DNA of 64,000 bases, from positions 28,366 to 92,365 of the forward strand of contig CAYOZJ010000001.1 of NCBI GenBank assembly GCA_964408485.1, given 5' to 3'. The notes below the pieces were generated by a model that worked only from the letters and a program-made list of their open reading frames with translations, searched no databases and was not told the DNA's origin. The stretch comes from an uncultured Gammaproteobacteria bacterium (GTDB lineage Bacteria; Patescibacteriota; Microgenomatia; Levybacterales; UBA12049). The position numbers were made by a program, and so were the translations under genes. Each line of letters starts with the position of its first letter. Position 1 is the first letter of the stretch. This document shows, one piece after another, positions 6,041-62,947 of the stretch.

Positions 6041-6304
6041 ATGTCAGCGGGTAGAAATCTTCATATAGAACGAGGTAATCTTCTAGAGAAATATAATGCA
6101 GCTACAACACGATTAACAGATGCAAAAAGAGAACATGGACGAAGAGGAAGTGCAGTAGCAGACGATAAACAGGAAGCGGGGCAATTAAGTAGAGCACTGG
6201 CAGCAAATAGAATTGCGCTAAAGGAAGAAAACAATACAGCACACGAAAGATATGTTCTTGGAAAAGCACAAGCGCAAGATCACAACACTCTTAATCAAGG
6301 ATGA
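6041..6304 (+). CDS. small hypothetical protein (87 aa)
   Basis: ATG at 6041 immediately after the rplT stop. The upstream part of ORF-track 5939..6304 overlaps rplT in another frame and was discarded. Low confidence. Confidence 0.3.
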   Translation: MSAGRNLHIERGNLLEKYNAATTRLTDAKREHGRRGSAVADDKQEAGQLSRALAANRIALKEENNTAHERYVLGKAQAQDHNTLNQG

Positions 6305-10280: not shown

Positions 10281-12566
10281 TTACGGTGTAGGCGTTGGGG
10301 TCGTTGGTTGGGTTGGCTGAATGTTAAGTGACTTCAATAAATCATCTGGTGGGTACCACTGATAATCTGCTGCTGAATGATTATCCTTAATCCATTGGTC
10401 TATTCCTGCTTGCCACCTATTTTGTCCATCTGTTGAGACTGGATCGTCTTCTCGGACTATATAGTAGATCTTTCCATCCTTACTTTGATACACAGGACTT
10501 GCTGATGTTGGCTCGGTTCCCTTGATGAAATATTCAGAACGTGTTGGCTGATTATTATAAGGAAGTCCACCAAAAAGCGTATCTACATTTACTGCTACAA
10601 TATTATCCGGCTTTTGCGGTTCTTCATTGGGCTTGCCCTTAAGCACATAGCTCATAATCTTATTCCAAATAGGGGACGCACCTGTTATACCTGATGCAAT
10701 TGCCTGATTCATTGCCGTATTGTCATTATTACCAACCCATACGCCGACAACATAAGACGGCGTGTACCCAACAGTCCAGTTGTCCTTTTTACTATCTGTC
10801 GTACCTGTTTTGACACTCACTGTCTTACCTGACACAACAAGCCAAGAATTTGTTCCGAATTCCAGAGAGCGGGCATTATTATCTAGTAATATATGAGAAA
10901 TTAGATACGTTACTTCTTTCGGCATTACTTGCACACCCGGCTTATCGTGATTTTCAAAAAGCACATTCCCATGACTATCAGTCACCTTAAGTATCGAGAC
11001 CGGGTCATGTCTCTGCCCTTGATCTGCAAATACGCTGTATGCTGTCATTTCATCAAGAAGTGTTGTTTCACGTCCTCCCAGGACAAGAGAGAGTCCTACA
11101 TCTTTCATATTTTCAGCCGTTGGCTCCCAATTCGTAATACCCATGTTGTAGCCTGTTGTCATCGTATCTTTAATACCTACTTTTGCAAGCATCTTTACTG
11201 CTGGAATATTCATAGAATTGCCCAAGGCAAAGCGAAGCTGAATGGGTCCATGATATTTTCCATCATAGTTAACTGGGGTATAGGTCGGATTCGCTGCCTC
11301 TCCTGTTGGAAAATCTGTCTTTACATCCATTATTTCTGTTGCCGGTGTATAACCTTTTTCAAAAGCTGTTGCATACATAATAGGCTTTAGAGACGATCCC
11401 GGCTGTCTATTAGCTAGAGCATCGTTATAATTCCCATCAATTGTTGTATCAAAATAATCTGTATTACCAACCATTGCTAAAATCTGGCCATTTTTTGGAT
11501 CCATTACCATTGCTGCGCCATTTGCAACATGATACCCCTTTAGATTTGCAATTTCTGTCTTCACGATATCTTCTGCATGTTTTTCGTAATCGTAATCGAG
11601 CGTTGTTGTTACTTGCAGTCCACCATTTTCTACAGCTGCTTCCCCAAATTGCTGTGCGAGAAGTTGTTTGACATACATTACCCAGTGGGGCGCTTTAATA
11701 GACCGATCGGTATCGGAGAATTTCATTGCTTGCACTTCTTTGTAGGCACTGTCATCCTCTTTTTGGGAAATATATCCTTCTTGCTGCATTGCATCGAGTA
11801 CTGCCTTTGTTCTGGCTAAATAGTATTTATTACCAGTAAATGGTGAGTACACACTTGGCGCCTGAGGAAGTCCTGCTAAAAATGCAGACTGCGCTAAATC
11901 CAGATCTTTCACATCTTTTCCAAAGTAAGCTTGCGCTGCAGATTCTACACCAATATTTGCTCCCCCATATGGTACGTCGTTAAGATACATTTCCAAAATT
12001 TGATCTTTGGAATATCTTTTATCCACTTGGATTGCCAAGATAAGCTCTTTGAGTTTTCGGACAAAGGTTTGTTGTGTGTCCTGAAGAAGGACATTTTTGA
12101 CTAATTGTTGAGTAAGTGTAGACCCTCCTCCTTCAATTCTTCGATAAACAATAAGATAAACTGCCGAGCGAAGATATCCTGTTACAGAAAATCCTGAATT
12201 AGTATAAAAATTTCTATCCTCGATGGAGATTGTTGCGCGTTGGACATTTTTTGGAATATCTTTTAATTGGACATAGGCTCTATTTTGATCTTTATACACA
12301 GAGTAGAGAAGTACGCCCTTTCTGTCAAAAATACGTGTAGACTCTGCAAGACTACTATTAATGAGTTTTCCCGGAGCGGGAAGATCGCGTCCATACCAAA
12401 TAAAGAGGAAAACAAAAATAACAACACCGATAATAAGCGCAAAAAGTGTAAGTCTGGCAAGACGACTATAGAGCACCATTCGAGACGATCCATTCACTGG
12501 GGGAAAGAGAAATCGCCAAAAACTAACAAGCAAACTCTGACGGCGACGCCTAGAGCGGAATTCCAT
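10281..12566 (-). CDS. class A penicillin-binding protein (transglycosylase/transpeptidase)
   Basis: GT51 motif GGSTLTQQLVKN, transpeptidase SxxK and KTG(T) motifs, N-terminal TM segment, Pro/Thr-rich C-terminus. Start placed at MEFRSRRRR; the ORF-track start at 12641 is also possible. Confidence 0.9.
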   Translation of the reverse strand: MEFRSRRRRQSLLVSFWRFLFPPVNGSSRMVLYSRLARLTLFALIIGVVIFVFLFIWYGRDLPAPGKLINSSLAESTRIFDRKGVLLYSVYKDQNRAYVQLKDIPKNVQRATISIEDRNFYTNSGFSVTGYLRSAVYLIVYRRIEGGGSTLTQQLVKNVLLQDTQQTFVRKLKELILAIQVDKRYSKDQILEMYLNDVPYGGANIGVESAAQAYFGKDVKDLDLAQSAFLAGLPQAPSVYSPFTGNKYYLARTKAVLDAMQQEGYISQKEDDSAYKEVQAMKFSDTDRSIKAPHWVMYVKQLLAQQFGEAAVENGGLQVTTTLDYDYEKHAEDIVKTEIANLKGYHVANGAAMVMDPKNGQILAMVGNTDYFDTTIDGNYNDALANRQPGSSLKPIMYATAFEKGYTPATEIMDVKTDFPTGEAANPTYTPVNYDGKYHGPIQLRFALGNSMNIPAVKMLAKVGIKDTMTTGYNMGITNWEPTAENMKDVGLSLVLGGRETTLLDEMTAYSVFADQGQRHDPVSILKVTDSHGNVLFENHDKPGVQVMPKEVTYLISHILLDNNARSLEFGTNSWLVVSGKTVSVKTGTTDSKKDNWTVGYTPSYVVGVWVGNNDNTAMNQAIASGITGASPIWNKIMSYVLKGKPNEEPQKPDNIVAVNVDTLFGGLPYNNQPTRSEYFIKGTEPTSASPVYQSKDGKIYYIVREDDPVSTDGQNRWQAGIDQWIKDNHSAADYQWYPPDDLLKSLNIQPTQPTTPTPTP

Positions 12567-12689
12567 ATAGCCTATTATGGCAAAGTTTTGGAGCAAAAAC
12601 AACTCAACTTGCAAAACCAGATAAATTATTATAAGATACACCTTATGACTGGCTTTGACTTAGATTATCGATGTGAACACCCTGATCCA

Positions 12690-13085
12690 CGATATAATGG
12701 CTTGCGTTGTTGGGCAGCAAGATGTAGAGCTGCGGGGGCGGGTAATGCCGCGGGAGATGAAGCTGCAAGTCGCCCAGGTAAACCATTACCTGCAGAACAA
12801 ATCGCTCGAGAAACTCAACGTAATGAAGCCCCAAGATTGTGTGGTAGAGTAGGTAGCAAAGGTAGACGTCAAACTTCATAATCTATGGCTGAATGTTCAA
12901 AATTTGAAGGACTACAATGTTTTCGAAAATGCAAAGCAGGCAAGGCTGGTCGAAGCATAGAAGTAAGACAAGGAAGACTGGGAGATCCAGGAGAAGTTCA
13001 GGAAAGATATGGGAAATCCGCTCAACAAGAATCTGCAAATAGAGATGGGTGTCTTAGGCAGGAGCGAAGTAGACCAAAAATATAA
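12690..13085 (+). ncRNA. rnpB: candidate RNase P RNA (GC-rich ORF-free island)
   Basis: GC content is far above the surrounding DNA and no convincing ORF is present. TGGGCAG...GGGTAATGCCGCGGG resembles the CR-II region AGGGCAGG..GGTAACGCCTGGG. GGTAAACC...CTCGAGAAACTCAACG resembles GGUAAACCCCUCGAGCGAGAAACCCAAAU of CR-III/IV. The 5' P4 strand (GGAAAGUCC) was not confidently located, so the boundaries are uncertain. Confidence 0.4.
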
Positions 13086-13299: not shown

Positions 13300-14475
13300 T
13301 TGGCGAAGGAGGATATGGAAAATATGAAAATAATAATAAATAACCAAGCACAAAAGTGGCTTGCTCAAAAGGAAAAGACATACACAAAGCCTTTCAAGAC
13401 AGAAGGAGTAATTTCCATGCACCTGGGAGAATGCTCTTTCCCAATCAAAACTCTGGAGAAAATTTTTCTCAGAACAAATTTTTCTGTAGCGCAGAAATAC
13501 CCAAAACAAACTACAGAAATAAAGAAAAAGCTCGCCAAAACATTTTCTATTACAGAAAACATGCTTGTGATGGGAAATGGGTCAGATGAGATTATTGAAA
13601 ATATTCCTCGGGTATTTTTAAACCCAGGAGATACTGTTCTTGTTGTAGTTCCAACGTTTTTCCGATTTCTTGATGCATCGGAAAAAGCAGGAGCAAAGAT
13701 ACACATAATCAAAACAAAGAAATCTGACAACTTTAGCATTACAGATGACATTACAAAAAAGATTATTCAAACAACGAAAGAGAAAAATATAAAACTTATC
13801 TGGCTTTGTAGCCCCAATAATCCAACAGGAATTCCTATTCCAAAGCAACATATAGAAAAGATTGCCAAGAAAACCAAATCTCTTATTGTATTGGATCAGG
13901 TATATGCAGAATTACAGGAAAATTCTTTTCTTAAACCTAAAGAAATTATTAAGAAGTTTCCGAATATTATCATTCTAAAAAGTTTTTCAAAAGTTTTCGG
14001 CCTTGCGGGACTTCGCGTGGGCTTTGCAATTGCAAATAAAAACATTGCTCAAAAACTTGAGAAATGGAATATGCCTTTTCATATTTCTTCATTGTCTCTT
14101 GAAATCGTAAAGAATGTTTTATCTCAAAAAAATGATATTACCTTAGAGGTAAGAAAAGTTGTAGAAAAAGAAAGAAATTTTTTAATTCACAAATTGAGAA
14201 AACAAAAAAATATAGAAGTTATTGAAGGATCACAGACAAATCTTATTCTTCTTCGTCATAAGACGAAAAATATATTTCAAGAACTTTTTAAAAGAAATAT
14301 TCTTGTTGCTGATTTTAATAATGCAAAAGGTATTGAAGGTATGGGTTTTGCAAGAGTAAGTCTTGGAACAAGAAATCAAAGCGCACTTCTTGTTAAAGCA
14401 TTAAACGATATTGATTCAACCTCTTTCTCTGACTCTGAAAGGAATCTTTCAGAGAATCAATATGAAAGGAGGTGA
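13300..14475 (+). CDS. class I/II PLP-dependent aminotransferase (HisC-like)
   Basis: SFSKVFGLAGLRVGFAIAN lysine motif and NPTG motif typical of the HisC/CobD family. Start may lie at a nearby downstream Met. Confidence 0.8.
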   Translation: MAKEDMENMKIIINNQAQKWLAQKEKTYTKPFKTEGVISMHLGECSFPIKTLEKIFLRTNFSVAQKYPKQTTEIKKKLAKTFSITENMLVMGNGSDEIIENIPRVFLNPGDTVLVVVPTFFRFLDASEKAGAKIHIIKTKKSDNFSITDDITKKIIQTTKEKNIKLIWLCSPNNPTGIPIPKQHIEKIAKKTKSLIVLDQVYAELQENSFLKPKEIIKKFPNIIILKSFSKVFGLAGLRVGFAIANKNIAQKLEKWNMPFHISSLSLEIVKNVLSQKNDITLEVRKVVEKERNFLIHKLRKQKNIEVIEGSQTNLILLRHKTKNIFQELFKRNILVADFNNAKGIEGMGFARVSLGTRNQSALLVKALNDIDSTSFSDSERNLSENQYERR

Positions 14476-16189: not shown

Positions 16190-18283
16190 ATGAAACTCTC
16201 AACCCCGATTACTAATGCAGGTAAACTGTATGCAAATTACGCAGGCCGCTTGGAAAAACTCGACATTTTTACCTTAAAGGATTTTTTGTATCACTTGCCA
16301 GCTCGCTATGACGACTTCTCTCATATTGTTGCAATTAAAGATTTGGTCGCTGGCGAGTTAGTAACAATACAGGGACAAATTACCGAAATAACAAATAGCT
16401 ATACACGGTCTCGTAAGCAAATTCAAAAAGCAACAATCACCGACGACAGCGGGACACTGCCTGTTATTTGGTTTAATCAACCATACATCACCAAGACGTT
16501 AAAGTTTGGTGATAGCGTGTCTTTATCAGGGAGAGTGCAATCGGATGGATTTATTCCAAGTCTTGTTGCACCTGATTTTGAAATTATTCCAATGAGCGGT
16601 AGGACAATTCATACTGGCAGGCTTGTCCCAGTGTATCCTGAGACAGCAGGGGTCAGCTCCAAATGGCTAAGACGCCAAGTAGATAAGTTACTTGCAACCT
16701 CTTATGAACTTGTTGAATTTCTACCAGATGAAACGCAAAAACGCCTTGACCTCATGCCATTTAATAAGGCCATTGCTCAGATTCATTTTCCCGATGCTCT
16801 AGGAGAATCAGAAAAAGCCCGCGAGCGCTTAGGATTTGATGAAATCTTTTTACTTCAATTAGCAAATATAAAAAGAAAAAGGGAGTGGCAAGAAAAAGTA
16901 TTAGGAAATACATTTGCGATAGAAAAATTCCAAAAGGAAATTGATAAATTTTGGGAAAGCCTACCATTTGAGCCAACAAGCGCGCAAAGACGAGCAATTC
17001 ATGAGATTATGAGTGACCTTGCTAGCCCTCATGCAATGAATAGATTACTCCAGGGAGATGTAGGAAGTGGCAAAACAATCGTCGCTGGTATTGCAATGTA
17101 TATGGCATTTTTAAATGGTTTTCAATCTGTCCTTATGGCACCAACAGAAATTTTAGCCAATCAACATTACGAAACACTAAAAAAATTACTCGAGCCGCTT
17201 GGAGTAAAGGTTGACTTAGCAACTGGTTCTAAAAAAACAGAACGCGTCATTGCGAGCGAAGCGAAGCAATCTAATATTAATAAGGAGAAGATTGCCGCGT
17301 CGTCTTCGACTCCTCGCAATGACAATTCATTTGACATCCTTATTGGTACCCATGCCGTACTTTCTGACAAGATAAATTACGAAAAATTAGGACTTGTTGT
17401 TATTGATGAGCAACATAGGTTTGGAGTAGAGCAACGATCTATTATTCGCTCCAAAGGCACAAATCCCCATGTCCTTACCATGACAGCAACACCAATCCCT
17501 CGTACCGTTGCGCTTACACTTTATGGGGATCTTGAGCTTTCTATTCTTGATGAAATGCCCAAAGGAAGACAAGTTATTAAGACATGGCTTGTCCCTAATC
17601 AAAAGCGTGAAGCAGGATATGAGTGGATAGAAAAACAAATTAAGAAAGGCGATCAGGCATTTATTGTCTGTCCGTTTATTGAAGAGTCTGAATCCCTAAC
17701 TACTATTAAAGCAGCGAGTAGTGAATTTGAACAACTTCAAAAACATGTTTTCCCAAAGCTCAAACTCGGACTTTTGCACGGAAAAATGCGAGCAAAAGAG
17801 AAAGATGAAGTTTTGGAGAAGTTTCGAAAGGGCAGTATAGATATTCTCGTCGCGACACCAGTTGTTGAAGTTGGCATAGACATTCCAAATGCAACAATTA
17901 TCCTTATTGAGGCAGCAGAAAGATTTGGACTATCACAGCTTCATCAACTCAGAGGTAGAGTTGGGAGAGGAGATAAGCAGTCATATTGCCTTCTTTTTAC
18001 CGAGAGTAGCAGCCCTCAAGCAACCCAACGTCTTAAAAGTATGGAACACATTCATAATGGCGCGGAATTAGCAGAGTTAGACTTAAAAATGCGAGGCTCT
18101 GGGGACTTATACGGCACTCTTCAACACGGCAGAAAATGGCTTAAAATAGCCTCATTTTCCGATACCAGACTTTTGGAAATAGCCAAACAAGAGGCAATAC
18201 GAGTTTTTCCAGATCTAAATAAATATCCACTTCTTATTGAGAAAATTGAAGAAACGGCCACAAAACAGGTTAGTCCAGACTGA
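16190..18283 (+). CDS. recG: ATP-dependent DNA helicase RecG
   Basis: Wedge domain, Walker A GDVGSGKT, DEQH box, helicase C motifs. Carries a 78-nt in-frame repeat insertion at 17246-17323. TATAAT lies 8 nt upstream of the ATG. Confidence 0.95.
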   Translation: MKLSTPITNAGKLYANYAGRLEKLDIFTLKDFLYHLPARYDDFSHIVAIKDLVAGELVTIQGQITEITNSYTRSRKQIQKATITDDSGTLPVIWFNQPYITKTLKFGDSVSLSGRVQSDGFIPSLVAPDFEIIPMSGRTIHTGRLVPVYPETAGVSSKWLRRQVDKLLATSYELVEFLPDETQKRLDLMPFNKAIAQIHFPDALGESEKARERLGFDEIFLLQLANIKRKREWQEKVLGNTFAIEKFQKEIDKFWESLPFEPTSAQRRAIHEIMSDLASPHAMNRLLQGDVGSGKTIVAGIAMYMAFLNGFQSVLMAPTEILANQHYETLKKLLEPLGVKVDLATGSKKTERVIASEAKQSNINKEKIAASSSTPRNDNSFDILIGTHAVLSDKINYEKLGLVVIDEQHRFGVEQRSIIRSKGTNPHVLTMTATPIPRTVALTLYGDLELSILDEMPKGRQVIKTWLVPNQKREAGYEWIEKQIKKGDQAFIVCPFIEESESLTTIKAASSEFEQLQKHVFPKLKLGLLHGKMRAKEKDEVLEKFRKGSIDILVATPVVEVGIDIPNATIILIEAAERFGLSQLHQLRGRVGRGDKQSYCLLFTESSSPQATQRLKSMEHIHNGAELAELDLKMRGSGDLYGTLQHGRKWLKIASFSDTRLLEIAKQEAIRVFPDLNKYPLLIEKIEETATKQVSPD
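17246..17323. repeat. composite hairpin repeat inserted in-frame within recG (78 nt, 26 codons)
   Basis: GTCATTGCGAGCGAAGCGAAGCAATC, a spacer, then GATTGCCGCGTCGTCTTCGACTCCTCGCAATGAC. It encodes ...ASEAKQSNINKEKIAASSSTPRNDNS.... A near-identical second half is in the HhH-GPD gene at 38596-38703. Confidence 0.75.
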
Positions 18284-20170: not shown

Positions 20171-20968
20171 ATGAAGGTTACTATTCTCACTCTTTTTCCC
20201 GAAATGTTTGATGGACCATTTCGAGAATCTATTCTCAAACATGCCCAGCAAAAGGGATTATTGGAAATTACGTTAGTAAATATCCGAGATTTTGGAGAAG
20301 GACGACATAAAATCGTTGACGACAAACCCTATGGGGGTGGAGTTGGAATGGTAATGAAAGTTGATATTTTAGATAAAGCGATTCAAGCAGTAAAGGATAA
20401 CTCATTAGATACAACCCAACAAAAGGTAATTCTTCTCGATGCCAGAGGAAAAACATTTGTTCAGGAAAAAGCAAAAGAATTTTCAGGACTAAAACATCTT
20501 ATTATTCTTTGTGGACACTATGAGGGTGTGGACGAAAGAATAAGAGATCTTGTCGATGAAACAATTTCCCTTGGGGACTTTATTCTGACAGGGGGAGAAA
20601 TTCCTGCAATGATTATTGTAGATAGCGTTACTAGACTTATCCCTAGTGTGTTAAAAGACGATGCAACCCTTAAGGAATCGTTCAGCATAATCCATAGCAC
20701 TGCATCCCAACCTCACCCTGACCCGGCCAGGCTTGTCAAGCAAGCAGCCTCTCTCACTTCGTTCAGTCCGGCCCTAAAAGGAGAGGGAAATCAAGGAGAT
20801 GTTTCTTTATTAGAATTTCCTCAATATACTACACCAAGAGAATACAATGGAAAAGAAGTTCCTAATGTCTTACTGTCTGGCAATCATAAAGAAATAGAAA
20901 AATGGAGAAAAGAAAAGTCTCTTGAAATAACTCAACAACACAGACCTGATCTTCTTAAAAAGAATTAA
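20171..20968 (+). CDS. trmD: tRNA (guanine37-N1)-methyltransferase
   Basis: MKVTILTLFPEMF...YGGGVGMV SPOUT-fold motifs. Carries an in-frame insertion of about 120 nt (20690-20808) and a C-terminal extension. TACAAT lies 7 nt upstream of the ATG. Confidence 0.95.
   Translation: MKVTILTLFPEMFDGPFRESILKHAQQKGLLEITLVNIRDFGEGRHKIVDDKPYGGGVGMVMKVDILDKAIQAVKDNSLDTTQQKVILLDARGKTFVQEKAKEFSGLKHLIILCGHYEGVDERIRDLVDETISLGDFILTGGEIPAMIIVDSVTRLIPSVLKDDATLKESFSIIHSTASQPHPDPARLVKQAASLTSFSPALKGEGNQGDVSLLEFPQYTTPREYNGKEVPNVLLSGNHKEIEKWRKEKSLEITQQHRPDLLKKN
20690..20808. repeat. repeat-derived in-frame insertion in trmD (about 40 codons)
   Basis: Contains AACCTCACCC ... CCCTAAAAGGAGAGGGAAATCAAGG (family D) interrupted by CCGGCCAGG...CTCTCTCACTTCGTTCAGTCCGG (reverse family-A core ctgaacgaag). 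Encodes IIHSTASQPHPDPARLVKQAASLTSFSPALKGEGNQGDVS between the conserved DSF and LLE.P.YT segments. Confidence 0.6.
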
Positions 20969-38425: not shown

Positions 38426-39099
38426 AATTTAATGATCCAATACTGCAGGAGTTAGTCAAAAAATATCCTGCGCCAAAATTTGAAGACCGGACAGGAAAAC
38501 TTTATGAAGAATTGGTTGAATCTATTATTTCCCAACAACTATCTGTCAAAGCATCAGATACTATATATAAGCGGTTTAAGGACTTATTTAAACCTGTCAT
38601 TGCGAACAGTGCGCGACCCCTCGGCGAAGATAGTCCCGAGTCGGGAAAGCAATCTAATACAAATAACGAGATTGCCGCGTCGTCTTCGACTCCTCGCAAT
38701 GACGCCTTCCCATCGCCTCAACAAGTTCTTGCCATGTCGGACGAACTTCTTCGAACAGCAGGTATTTCTTTTCAAAAAATTTCCTATATAAAAAGTGTTG
38801 CCGATGCTTTTATTTCCGATTTAATTGATGTTGAAAAAATAAAGAAAATGACTAATGATGAAGTGATTGAGACACTTACCCAAATTCGGGGAGTAGGGAA
38901 GTGGACTGCAGAAATGACTCTTATTTTTACACTCAAAAAACCTGATGTATTTTCTTTGGGAGACTTAGGTCTTCGCAATGCAATTACCAAGCTGTATGGA
39001 ATAACAGATCAAAAGAAAATGCTTGAGTTATCTGAAACCTGGAAACCTTTTAGAAGTTATGCGTGTTGGTATTTGTGGAGAAGTCTGGAGAATAGTTAA
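38422..39099 (+). CDS. HhH-GPD superfamily DNA glycosylase (AlkA/3-methyladenine glycosylase II-like)
   Basis: Helix-hairpin-helix GVGKWTAEM followed by a catalytic Asp. Contains a 108-nt in-frame repeat insertion at 38596-38703. Confidence 0.7.
   Translation: MKFNDPILQELVKKYPAPKFEDRTGKLYEELVESIISQQLSVKASDTIYKRFKDLFKPVIANSARPLGEDSPESGKQSNTNNEIAASSSTPRNDAFPSPQQVLAMSDELLRTAGISFQKISYIKSVADAFISDLIDVEKIKKMTNDEVIETLTQIRGVGKWTAEMTLIFTLKKPDVFSLGDLGLRNAITKLYGITDQKKMLELSETWKPFRSYACWYLWRSLENS
38596..38703. repeat. composite hairpin repeat inserted in-frame within the HhH-GPD glycosylase gene (108 nt, 36 codons)
   Basis: GTCATTGCGAAC...GGGAAAGCAATC plus TAATACAAATAACGA plus GATTGCCGCGTCGTCTTCGACTCCTCGCAATGAC. 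The 33-nt second unit is identical to the recG copy. Encodes ...ARPLGEDSPESGKQSNTNNEIAASSSTPRNDA.... Confidence 0.75.
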
Positions 39100-56438: not shown

Positions 56439-57311
56439 TTATTTTTCTTCAAAAGATTTTAGCACTTCACTCAATTCATTCGGCAAAGGTGCCTCAAAGT
56501 CCATTTTCTTTCCATTTATTGGATGGGTAAAGGAAATATGCGCTGCGTGAAGAAAAACGCGAGGAAGTACCCTCCTGTCTTCTCTACTTACTTTCCTCCC
56601 GGCATATAGCTCGTCACCAAAAATTGGATGACCAATGTATTGCAAATGGACTCTAATTTGATGTGTTCTACCTGTTTTGGGGAAAAGCCTAACAAAAGAA
56701 AGGATTTCTTTTGTTTTAGGACTTTCTAAATACCTCTCGACTTCGTAATGCGTAACAGATTCCCTACCTCCAGCCACAACACCAAACCGCTTACGATTAA
56801 ATTCTAACCGTCCAACAGGTACATTTATTTCCCCTTTTGCTGGAAGAATTTTCCCATGGGCAAGAGCAATGTAATTTTTCTCAATTACTCTTTCTTTAAA
56901 TTGTTTTTGCAGCTCAATAAAACTATCCAGTGTTTTGGCAACAAGCATAACTCCTGATGTTTCTTTATCAAGGCGGTGAACAATACCTGCGCGGTTGGCA
57001 AAGGCGTCCTCGGGAGGTTCCCAATTGGGATTCCATTGTTCTGGTAAACGTTGTTCTTTAAGTAAACCCGCGCCGCCTGTCGACACTTCGTGCGCAGGCA
57101 AGCTCCTCACTTCGTTCGTCCGCTCCCATTCTCCTTCTTTTCTTTGCGTAATAAGACGGATAGGATTTTTAGGGATATGGAGGTAATCTTGCACCATCTC
57201 TTGCAAAGTAATGACATGTGCAGTTGTGTCTGAGTTATTTACAATTACTCCCGCAGGCTTATTAACAACGAGCAAATCAGTATCCTCATAGATCACATCA
57301 AGCCTACTCAT
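56439..57311 (-). CDS. RluA-family pseudouridine synthase
   Basis: VVNKPAGV and HRLDKETSG catalytic Asp motif. An in-frame insertion of about 45-50 aa lies between the conserved blocks (57000-57149). Confidence 0.85.
   Translation of the reverse strand: MSRLDVIYEDTDLLVVNKPAGVIVNNSDTTAHVITLQEMVQDYLHIPKNPIRLITQRKEGEWERTNEVRSLPAHEVSTGGAGLLKEQRLPEQWNPNWEPPEDAFANRAGIVHRLDKETSGVMLVAKTLDSFIELQKQFKERVIEKNYIALAHGKILPAKGEINVPVGRLEFNRKRFGVVAGGRESVTHYEVERYLESPKTKEILSFVRLFPKTGRTHQIRVHLQYIGHPIFGDELYAGRKVSREDRRVLPRVFLHAAHISFTHPINGKKMDFEAPLPNELSEVLKSFEEK
57000..57149. repeat. repeat-derived in-frame insertion in the RluA-family gene
   Basis: Plus-strand text contains CAAGCTCCTCACTTCGTTCGTCCGCTCCC, closely matching CAGCCTCTCTCACTTCGTTCAGTCCGGCCC in the trmD insertion. 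Encodes TQRKEGEWERTNEVRSLPAHEVSTGGAGLLKEQRLPEQWNPNWEPPEDAF, which is not found in family homologues. Confidence 0.5.
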
Positions 57312-62767: not shown

Positions 62768-62900
62768 GGGCGAGTGGTGGAATGCGAAGTCCGCCGACCA
62801 ATTTTGGCATGAGGCGTATTCGAATAGAATTGAAATCCGATTCAATCGGATTGAAAAGCCGAATGCGAAAATAAGGCGGGGTAGACACGCGGAGCGAAAA
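62768..62900 (+). repeat. family-C intergenic element (copy 2) beginning with a tRNA-Leu-like 5' fragment
   Basis: GGGCGAGTGGTGGAATG resembles the first 17 nt of the adjacent tRNA-Leu (GGGCAAGTGGCGGAATG). Then CGAATAGAATTGAAATCCGATTCAATCGGATTGAAAAGCCGAA... is homologous to 37650-37765. Confidence 0.5.
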
Positions 62901-62947
62901 GGATTTGTTGATCAGATTCAATTAGTAAGTTTAAATAAAGAATATTA

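Follow-up and report, generated by a model that had tools for sequence, protein, structure and literature searches.

An in-frame insertion in the rluA gene of a Levybacterales bacterium carries a conserved two-hairpin element

The gene rluA, which encodes an RluA-family pseudouridine synthase, carries a private in-frame insertion of 105 nucleotides (nt) in a 64,000-nt stretch of DNA (the window) from an uncultured bacterium of the Levybacterales, Patescibacteriota (assembly GCA_964408485.1, contig CAYOZJ010000001.1, positions 28,366 to 92,365). The insertion holds a copy of an element of about 50-65 nt that is made of two hairpins and for which we here use the name R1. Very probably, a piece of DNA carrying one conserved R1 element entered the gene in-frame and was tolerated there. 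The point of insertion would be a lineage-specific and already variable loop upstream of the catalytic HRLD block; the resulting 35-residue loop would be tolerated rather than useful, with frame-breaking insertions being purged by selection, and R1 itself may be a selfish or recombination-spread structured repeat.

The rluA gene and its private insertion

The gene occupies positions 56439..57311 of the window on the minus strand and is an intact open reading frame (ORF) of 290 amino acids (aa). Its product matches the PF00849 profile with 98.8 bits (cut-off 26.8; E 4.6e-28) and aligns to PDB structures of RluD, RluC, and RluA. An AlphaFold model built with 19 homologs as input (mean predicted local distance difference test score, pLDDT, 79.5) has the pseudouridine synthase fold, with Foldseek retrieving RluD, RluA, and RluC at E 1e-18 to 3e-20 (matches 11wx, 2ist, and 2i82; TMt 0.54-0.77). 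The VVNKPAG block (residues 15-21) and the HRLD block with its catalytic aspartate (residues 112-115) are both invariant in the ortholog alignment, and the window protein retains all of the family-invariant residues. A search of 5.8 billion proteins returned the identical protein once, followed by orthologs of about 255 aa at 66-67% identity. The window and two orthologs share the gene order MFS transporter, 221-aa membrane protein, rluA, LytR_C, TPR, and YebC.

The original prediction had placed 45-50 extra residues before the HRLD block. The insertion is real, but its private part is shorter. The spacing between NKPAG and HRLD is about 55 residues above that of solved structures (26 to 100 in the query, against 40 to 58 in 11wx and 32 to 52 in RluD), and exactly 35 of these extra residues (64-98) are private when compared with orthologs P0002-P0014, the other 20 or so being typical of the lineage. 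The private residues, RTNEVRSLPAHEVSTGGAGLLKEQRLPEQWNPNWE, are encoded at 57018..57122 (minus strand), and where the orthologs read RKEGEWE-xPEDAF the window reads RKEGEWE-RTNEVRSLPAHEVSTGGAGLLKEQRLPEQWNPNWE-PPEDAF. The syntenic orthologs nearest to the window gene, at 66-75% identity, lack the segment, and the empty site is also seen at the DNA level in the syntenic orthologs L001, L002, and L004 (...GAGTGGGAG|AATCCGGAAGACGCG...), the window gene having its 105 extra nt between GAATGGGAG and CCTCCCGAGGACGCC. Consequently, the extra segment is not typical of the family, as both the RluA multiple alignment and the DNA loci show the nearest orthologs, in conserved synteny, without it. The host ORF and its conserved motifs are intact around the insert and relatives hold the empty site, which is the pattern by which intragenic Rickettsia palindromic elements (RPEs) and repetitive extragenic palindromic (REP) sequences are recognized. 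Furthermore, the insert is not an assembly artifact, because two independent assemblies, SRR9179560 and SRR9179563, give the same gene sequence (100% identity).

Residues 62-94 have pLDDT values below 50 and are without secondary structure in the model, while the catalytic domain is confidently placed; the model thus predicts that the inserted residues form a disordered surface loop. The insert is probably translated, as a loop of 35 residues, because its length is a multiple of three and it holds no stop in the reading frame.

A second copy of the element in trmD

The DNA of the rluA insert was originally said to match closely an insert in trmD, and this match is borne out. Both strings that had been compared are present, CAAGCTCCTCACTTCGTTCGTCCGCTCCC at 57099-57127 and CAGCCTCTCTCACTTCGTTCAGTCCGGCCC at 20745-20774, and the best local alignment of the two inserts has 26/31 identities with two gaps and a score of 33, a value attained by none of 2000 shuffles; among 1051 other segments of the window, the highest score is 25. 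The 12-mer CTCACTTCGTTC occurs twice in the window, once per insert and nowhere else, and with at most one mismatch there are three matches against 0.15 expected. That the similarity would extend beyond a core of about 30 nt is upheld by a covariance model of R1, built from eight short-loop copies (the rluA copy excluded, the trmD copy included), which matches both inserts across all 56 of its positions. Run over the 64-kb window with filters off, the model returned two full-length significant matches, 20722-20779 (65.4 bits) and 57066-57131 (48.6 bits, E 4.6e-10), and no other full-length match with E <3.

The trmD gene (20171..20968, plus strand; 265 aa; PF01746, E 1.5e-52) carries its insert in the inter-domain linker (residues 173-212, positions 20687..20806, plus strand), where its closest orthologs (78-80% identity) have two residues in place of 40 and locus L046 has an empty site. 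The R1 copy (20722..20779, minus strand) is antisense to the gene and lies inside an outer hairpin repeat, 'PHPNP..GEGDQG'. In loci L045 and L047 the outer repeat is present alone at this site, with no R1, and the trmD copy is nested within a second, older repeat. At the point where the window has R1, two outer-repeat-only TrmD orthologs read AGGGAGAGGG (on the R1 sense strand), and the site contains a GGGAG-like sequence. The rluA and trmD copies belong to different subtypes and have opposite orientations relative to their genes, sense in rluA and antisense in trmD. The existence of this second and divergent copy, in the opposite orientation and within an older repeat, suggests that R1 enters genes repeatedly and on either strand.

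The same loops of RluA and TrmD relatives gather unrelated repeat peptides (VIPAKAGIQ..., VILEGAKRPIES..., PHPNPLP..GEGDQG). The TrmD inter-domain linker is a repeat hot spot in its own right, with PHPNPLP..GEGDQG, VIPAKAGIQ.., and GVARxGDP.. at the same point in relatives. Repeat-derived insertions are also found in another loop of the RluA orthologs P0020, P0023, and P0094, after residue ~196, as the peptides VILEGAKRPIES..DPIASLQDD and VIPAKAGIQKNPGSPIRSGMT and a long low-complexity segment. The 'ERRTN' peptide of P0020 was considered as a remnant of R1 and rejected; it is instead a (CGAACGA)3 microsatellite before the TGGGAG site.

Anatomy and junctions of the rluA copy

The R1 copy of rluA (57066..57131, minus strand, sense relative to the gene) combines the native GAATGGGAG codons immediately before the insert with the first 57 nt or so of the insert itself. 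Hairpin 1 (57100..57125, minus strand) has a stem GAGC/GCUU around GGAC-GA-AC-GAA-GU-GA-GGA and is supported by stem covariation across copies. Hairpin 2 (57075..57099, minus strand), which is recovered by both RNA and DNA folds, pairs GCCUG with CAGGC and holds an inner CAC-GAA-GUG mini-hairpin in its loop. The remainder of the insert is an AT-rich tail of about 46 nt, TTTACTTAAAGAACAACGTTTACCAGAACAATGGAATCCCAATTGG (57018..57065, minus strand). The R1 part (57067-57131) is 66% GC, the tail (57021-57066) 35%, and the window 38.5%. The tail has no significant similarity to neighboring gene sequence or elsewhere in the window, and a local duplication as its source was rejected, since 575 and 357 of 2000 shuffles score equally.

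The 5' junction, GAATGGGAG (57123..57131, minus strand), is ambiguous, as it can be read as native E-W-E codons (GAGTGGGAG in orthologs) or as the usual 5' end of R1; the sequence GAATGG(G)AGCGGAC is also the 5' end of the R1 copies at loci L013, L026, and L038. The target GAGTGGGAG matches the usual R1 end GAATGGGAG at 8/9 nt, and this match coincides with the junction. A related sequence, AATTGGGAA (57018-57026), closes the insert as a recurrence of the 5' junction, and the insert is flanked by AATGGGA and AATTGGGA, AATGGGA being also a normal R1 5' end. The 8/9 match and the GGGAG at the trmD site together suggest that short homology or a target motif guides insertion, GGGAG as a target motif being drawn from two or three cases. 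Both the neutrality of the R1 insertion and the mechanism of its mobilization are what we infer from these patterns; the latter may have been templated repair, a gene conversion in which another copy served as donor, or the kind of single-strand transposition known from IS200/IS605-REP elements.

The short-loop consensus of R1 is open in 4/6 frames. The frame used in rluA would meet a stop (the TGA in CUUGA), which the rluA copy escapes because its hairpin 2 loop is longer. A search of Rfam at E up to 10 over 56900-57250 returned nothing relevant, including no match to an intron or ribozyme, and the insert is not called as tRNA by ARAGORN or by the tRNA covariance model.

Structure and distribution of R1

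An exact-pattern scan with CGGAC-N0-1-GAACGAAGTGAG-N0-1-GAG, using one genome per prokaryotic species, found 31 loci, against about four by chance according to our own estimate. They lie mostly in members of the candidate phyla radiation (CPR; Levyibacteriota, Kerfeldbacteria, Paceibacterota, and others), DPANN archaea, gammaproteobacterial metagenome-assembled genomes (MAGs), Pontibacillus, and one cyanobacterium; a few matches in high-GC genomes lie inside genes and look like chance. A metagenome scan added seven further loci, too few for large-scale statistics of context. The flanks define the unit in CPR as WGG(G)AGC-GGAC(U)GAACGAAGUGAG(G)GA-GCUC-GCCUG-[CUUGA, or a small inner hairpin]-CAGGC-GUGG, and other CPR phyla and gammaproteobacterial MAGs hold copies with identities of up to ~90%. 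In a Levyibacteriota genome, an intergenic copy (6149-6214 of locus L026) is found immediately upstream of a gene for tRNA-Leu. Compared by eye with the first 57 nt or so of the rluA insert, this copy, GGAGCGGACGAACGAAGTGAGGAGCTCGCCTGCGCATGAAATGTCGACAGGCGTGG, shows about 90% identity, and its inner hairpin reads CAU-GAA-AUG in place of CAC-GAA-GUG, a compensated change.

Over 37 sources, the covariance model produced 20 full-length matches and 15 matches to hairpin 1 only. Micrarchaeota gave full-length matches that were among the weaker ones (34-36 bits), Pacearchaeota and Woesearchaeota gave matches to hairpin 1 only, and the rluA copy was itself among the more degenerate full-length copies (48.6 vs about 80 bits). 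The R1 alignment, which is fitted to the R1 model, has 95.9% of its cells paired, a share that drops to 22-46% once the 3' partners are slid; two-sided changes are seen at three pairs (15 cells), and none of 500 shuffles attains the observed covariation. Stem pairs of hairpin 1 vary as AU/GC/UA and GC/CG/AU across copies, and in the stem of hairpin 2, predicted by both RNA and DNA folding, CG changes to UA in four copies. In the copies compared, the optional U or C after GGAC is always accompanied by an extra 3' G, as expected for a base pair. We interpret hairpin 1 as a rod that would consist of a stem, a G.A/A.G tandem, a C-G pair, a second G.A/A.G tandem, AC/GU, and a GAA triloop, and GAA mini-hairpins are a known motif of exceptional stability (PMC13037366).

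R1 had no match in PLSDB plasmids at E up to 1 and no exact match in viral contigs. A 19-nt match to hairpin 1, GACGAACGAAGTGAGGAGC (E 0.9), was seen in phages K1-5 and ACG-C91 at positions ~246-300, near the left end of these SP6-like coliphage genomes, and is probably due to chance.

The tRNA neighborhood of R1

Intergenic copies of R1 occur at L006, L013, L015, L026, L035, L038, L039, and L042, and none is intergenic within the window. About half of the copies outside genes have a tRNA gene within 100 nt, and 8 of the 9 bacterial tRNA-adjacent copies are on the same strand as the tRNA. At L013, R1 is joined to a 5' half that resembles tRNA-Arg (26/31 identities with the neighboring tRNA-Arg), with hairpin 1 at the place of the anticodon loop; at L042, R1 is followed by the 3' half of a tRNA with a long variable arm. 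The intergenic copies themselves are not called as tRNA by ARAGORN or by the Rfam tRNA model, and the connection therefore lies in adjacent tRNA genes and fragments only.

Other arrangements were observed next to tRNA genes. At 398-505 of L010, a copy of hairpin 1 only and a second hairpin with a GCGAAGC loop lie directly after a tRNA gene. After the hairpin-1-only copy, 23 nt from the 3' end of the preceding tRNA are duplicated, which resembles the scar of a tiny integrated element. At L007 and L028, hairpin-1-only copies lie just downstream of a tRNA gene. The window itself holds, at 62768-62945 (plus strand) and just upstream of tRNA-Leu(CAA), an apparent 5' fragment of tRNA-Leu, GGGCGAGTGGTGGAATG, that is broken after GGAATG and followed by ~110 nt of unknown sequence and then GGTAGACACGCGGAGC. 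L026 shares this break point, and there R1 comes next. Neither Rfam nor ARAGORN makes a call on the fragment stretch at 62768-62945.

Hairpin 1 alone also tips unrelated longer hairpins, as in L008, L009, and Pontibacillus repeats. The Pontibacillus repeat is at least about 70 nt long and is present in five copies, at L016, L017, L022, L024 (P. chungwhensis), and L031 (P. salipaludis). Three of the five are long hairpins of ~110 nt, CTGGGGAACGG...CGTTCCCCAG, tipped by the hairpin 1 sequence, and the other two diverge after the tip. This repeat looks like a separate family that uses the hairpin 1 module.

R1 in other genes

Copies inside genes are not limited to the window. At L034, R1 lies in-frame and in sense orientation in a gammaproteobacterial protein resembling an RNase_T exonuclease and GIY-YIG (...GVYIFY|GADERSEEPACERSETGADQT|...). 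At L041 it is antisense in a CPR RadA, in the linker after the zinc ribbon, and at L037 and L040 it forms the C-terminal tail of a family-2 glycosyltransferase. Depending on frame and strand, R1 encodes different peptides, and this speaks against a function at the protein level. Compared with 5LKM, the RadA of L041 has a second insert, SGSPRALNNSTLARGPVASFPPASTPSSLASLRTKVRAVGSPSTGATPRSP, of ~48 aa, which separates Walker A from the remainder of the ATPase.

Relation to known elements

Literature searches found no description of the R1 element, a literature search by sequence returned unrelated primers only, and no description of an in-frame repeat insertion in CPR was found in the literature. 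Several known systems nevertheless offer parallels. The RPEs of Rickettsia are palindromic repeats that occur in-frame inside functional genes as well as between genes and that are translated as extra loops (PMC10969869), and for the REP superfamilies (GTAG/CGTC) the recurrent intragenic hosts are DNA-repair genes, tRNA synthetases, and pseudouridine synthases (PMC3733652). R1 resembles them in being both intergenic and in-frame in genes, and the host classes are the same here (rluA, trmD, recG, a glycosylase, RadA). It differs in that it is composed of two different hairpins and not of one palindrome, and its apparent copy number is low, unlike that of classic high-copy REP or MITE (miniature inverted-repeat transposable element) families. 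While REP and RPE families are usually genus-specific, R1 is near-identical across several CPR phyla and gammaproteobacterial MAGs, weaker in DPANN archaea, and linked to tRNA genes. No sequence relation of R1 to RPE or REP was detected, in a comparison made without direct alignment.

The GC clusters of yeast mitochondria are mostly intergenic, occur in-frame in var1, have short terminal repeats, and undergo merging and nesting (PMC8811140). Like them, R1 is a GC-rich hairpin element in an AT-rich genome that is sometimes found in-frame in a protein gene; unlike them, it is bacterial and not organellar, it is without sequence relation to them, and bypass is not suggested here. To count as a MITE, an element needs terminal inverted repeats and target-site duplications, and R1 falls outside this definition because it lacks terminal inverted repeats; its junction repeat is only an ambiguous 5-7 nt. 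Elements derived from IS200/IS605 and the REP/RAYT systems, which are found in bacteria and archaea, carry hairpins close to both ends, lack terminal inverted repeats and target duplications, and insert beside a short specific target. Their likeness to R1 is one of mechanism only, by analogy, with the putative GGGAG target seen in the two or three cases already mentioned. MITEs such as Coxiella QMITE, Correia, and ERIC are small non-autonomous repeats able to fuse in-frame with host ORFs (PMC10969869).

The RF01691 Bacillus-plasmid RNA is a single hairpin upstream of rep/mob genes in Bacillus and Lactobacillus plasmids, and its published alignment contains some members with an inner segment like hairpin 1 and others without it (PMC2864571). 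Its terminal loop, CGGAC.GAgCgaAGgGaGGGAG, is nearly the hairpin 1 sequence of R1, but unlike R1 it has no second hairpin. Two hairpin-1-only loci, L025 and L033, pass the RF01691 gathering score; RF01691 has no match in the window at this score and none at E up to 10 over 56900-57250. R1 is neither a member of RF01691 nor a MITE nor a tRNA. The rluA case follows the logic of RPE and REP insertions and of GC clusters, in a new lineage and with a new element.

Alternative explanations

The insertion of a tolerated R1 element has to be weighed against other explanations of the rluA segment. The loop could have acquired a role in the enzyme, for instance as a forefinger extension that alters substrate choice. 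In RluA-family enzymes, the segment preceding the catalytic aspartate carries a forefinger loop, which binds RNA in its minor groove (PMC3753934), and it is in this region that the insert lies, at a site already expanded in the lineage and with a charged peptide (R, E, K). Such exaptation is nevertheless unlikely: the insert is present in one genome only and its closest orthologs are without it, the loop is predicted to be disordered, R1 is read in another frame in L034 and is antisense in trmD and RadA, which gives unrelated peptides, and the trmD and RluA sites gather many unrelated repeats in relatives. It is quite improbable, too, that the hairpins are kept in the rluA mRNA for stability, protein binding, or translational pausing, with coding being incidental. 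The sense orientation of R1 in rluA, the G-U pairs included in the hairpin covariation, and the placement of most bacterial intergenic copies on the strand of neighboring tRNA genes would agree with an RNA-level cis element, but the copies in trmD and RadA are antisense, the feature is not conserved in orthologs, and the rluA copy, with its low model score, is one of the more degenerate full-length ones. Removal of the segment as an intron, or its skipping by translational bypass like that of the GC-cluster 'byps' of Magnusiomyces mitochondria, has a precedent in GC clusters that are inserted in genes and bypassed in one yeast mitochondrion (PMC8811140). This explanation is very unlikely for rluA, where the insert is exactly 105 nt and open; the other genic copies are likewise open in their host frames, a pattern expected only if the segment is translated, and Rfam gives no intron or ribozyme match. 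Finally, the AT-rich tail has internal short repeats and the relative P0020 carries its (CGAACGA)3 microsatellite at the same rluA site, as might follow from local slippage or mis-assembly with a coincidental match to trmD. Against chance or artifact stand the shuffles, none of 2000 of which reach the similarity, the model match at E~5e-10, the near-identical copies in unrelated genomes, and the identical sequence in two assemblies, and we consider this account extremely improbable.

A number of observations weigh against the insertion of a tolerated R1 element itself. A donor copy with the same 46-nt AT-rich tail was not found, the window being the part of the source genome that was read; the 'duplication' formed by AATGGGA and AATTGGGA is short and imperfect (5-7 nt), and terminal inverted repeats are absent from both the rluA insert and the R1 consensus. 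R1 appears to be present in few copies, two in 64 kb and one exact-pattern match per CPR genome, and no transposase was found linked to R1, no search aimed at a Y1 transposase having been made. Thermodynamic folding z-scores of R1 are unremarkable (-2.0 to +0.5); note that nearest-neighbor folding models may undervalue G.A tandems. A functional effect of the predicted 35-residue loop is conceivable given its place in the forefinger-loop segment upstream of the catalytic aspartate, though nothing points to an effect on substrate binding.

A broader interpretation of R1, which we regard as tentative, is that it is an undescribed structured element, a small RNA or a single-strand DNA signal, whose home is in tRNA clusters and whose genic copies are off-target. 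Hairpin 1, as a G.A rod with a GAA triloop, would then have been kept near base-for-base in several CPR phyla and gammaproteobacterial MAGs and more weakly in DPANN, and the same rod may be present in Firmicutes within the RF01691 loop. The element would be mostly on the tRNA strand in bacteria, would sometimes be fused to tRNA fragments, and could spread next to sequences resembling GGGAG or GAATGG, such as those where the D-arm and the anticodon stem of a tRNA meet. In this view, rluA, trmD, RadA, and the exonuclease gene would have received off-target insertions.

A second hairpin family in recG and a glycosylase

Two more housekeeping genes, recG and a glycosylase, had originally been grouped with rluA and trmD as carriers of in-frame repeat-derived segments. 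They do carry such segments, but these derive from a different hairpin family. In recG, the segment VIASEAKQS...AASSSTPRNDN (17246..17323, plus strand; repeats I4 and D15) accounts for ~16 extra residues relative to 1GM5, and in the AlkA-like HhH-GPD glycosylase (PF00730) the insert lies at 38587..38703 (plus strand) and corresponds to a gap of ~35 aa relative to 3S6I. Repeat D15 (35 nt) is 100% identical between recG (17289-17323) and the glycosylase (38669-38703). The family has the form AGAT-stem-TCRCTTYGYTC-stem-ATGAC and about ten copies in the window (2741, 3056, 5646, 16147, 17254, 17289, 18542, 19862, 38669, and 46090), most of them intergenic and two in-frame. Its stems covary (ATTTC/GAAAT, ATCCT/AGGAT, ATTCT/AGAAT, ATTGC/GCAAT). 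With hairpin 1 of R1 it has only the 11-nt motif GARCRAAGYGA in common, which forms the loop of this second family, and its partial matches to the R1 model are at E 1-5. Elsewhere in the window, a GC-rich island (at least 58% GC) at 12693-12796 occupies an apparent intergenic gap between the ORFs 10281-12641 and 13300-14475.

Biological significance

The rluA insertion would mean that CPR bacteria with small genomes are subject to invasion of essential genes by selfish DNA, as are Rickettsia and yeast mitochondria, with surface loops and linkers of RNA-modification and DNA-repair enzymes as the hot spots of invasion. Insertions of this kind make proteins longer, bring in spurious low-complexity stretches, and can lead alignments astray, which concerns both annotation and phylogeny; they are also datable presence/absence markers for lineages. 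Potentially more interesting are the conservation of R1 across phyla, its tie to tRNA genes, and the recurring GGGAG and GAATGG at its junctions. Because it is unusually conserved across phyla and tied to tRNA genes, R1 may prove to be a new structured signal in RNA or DNA, or to move in a new way.

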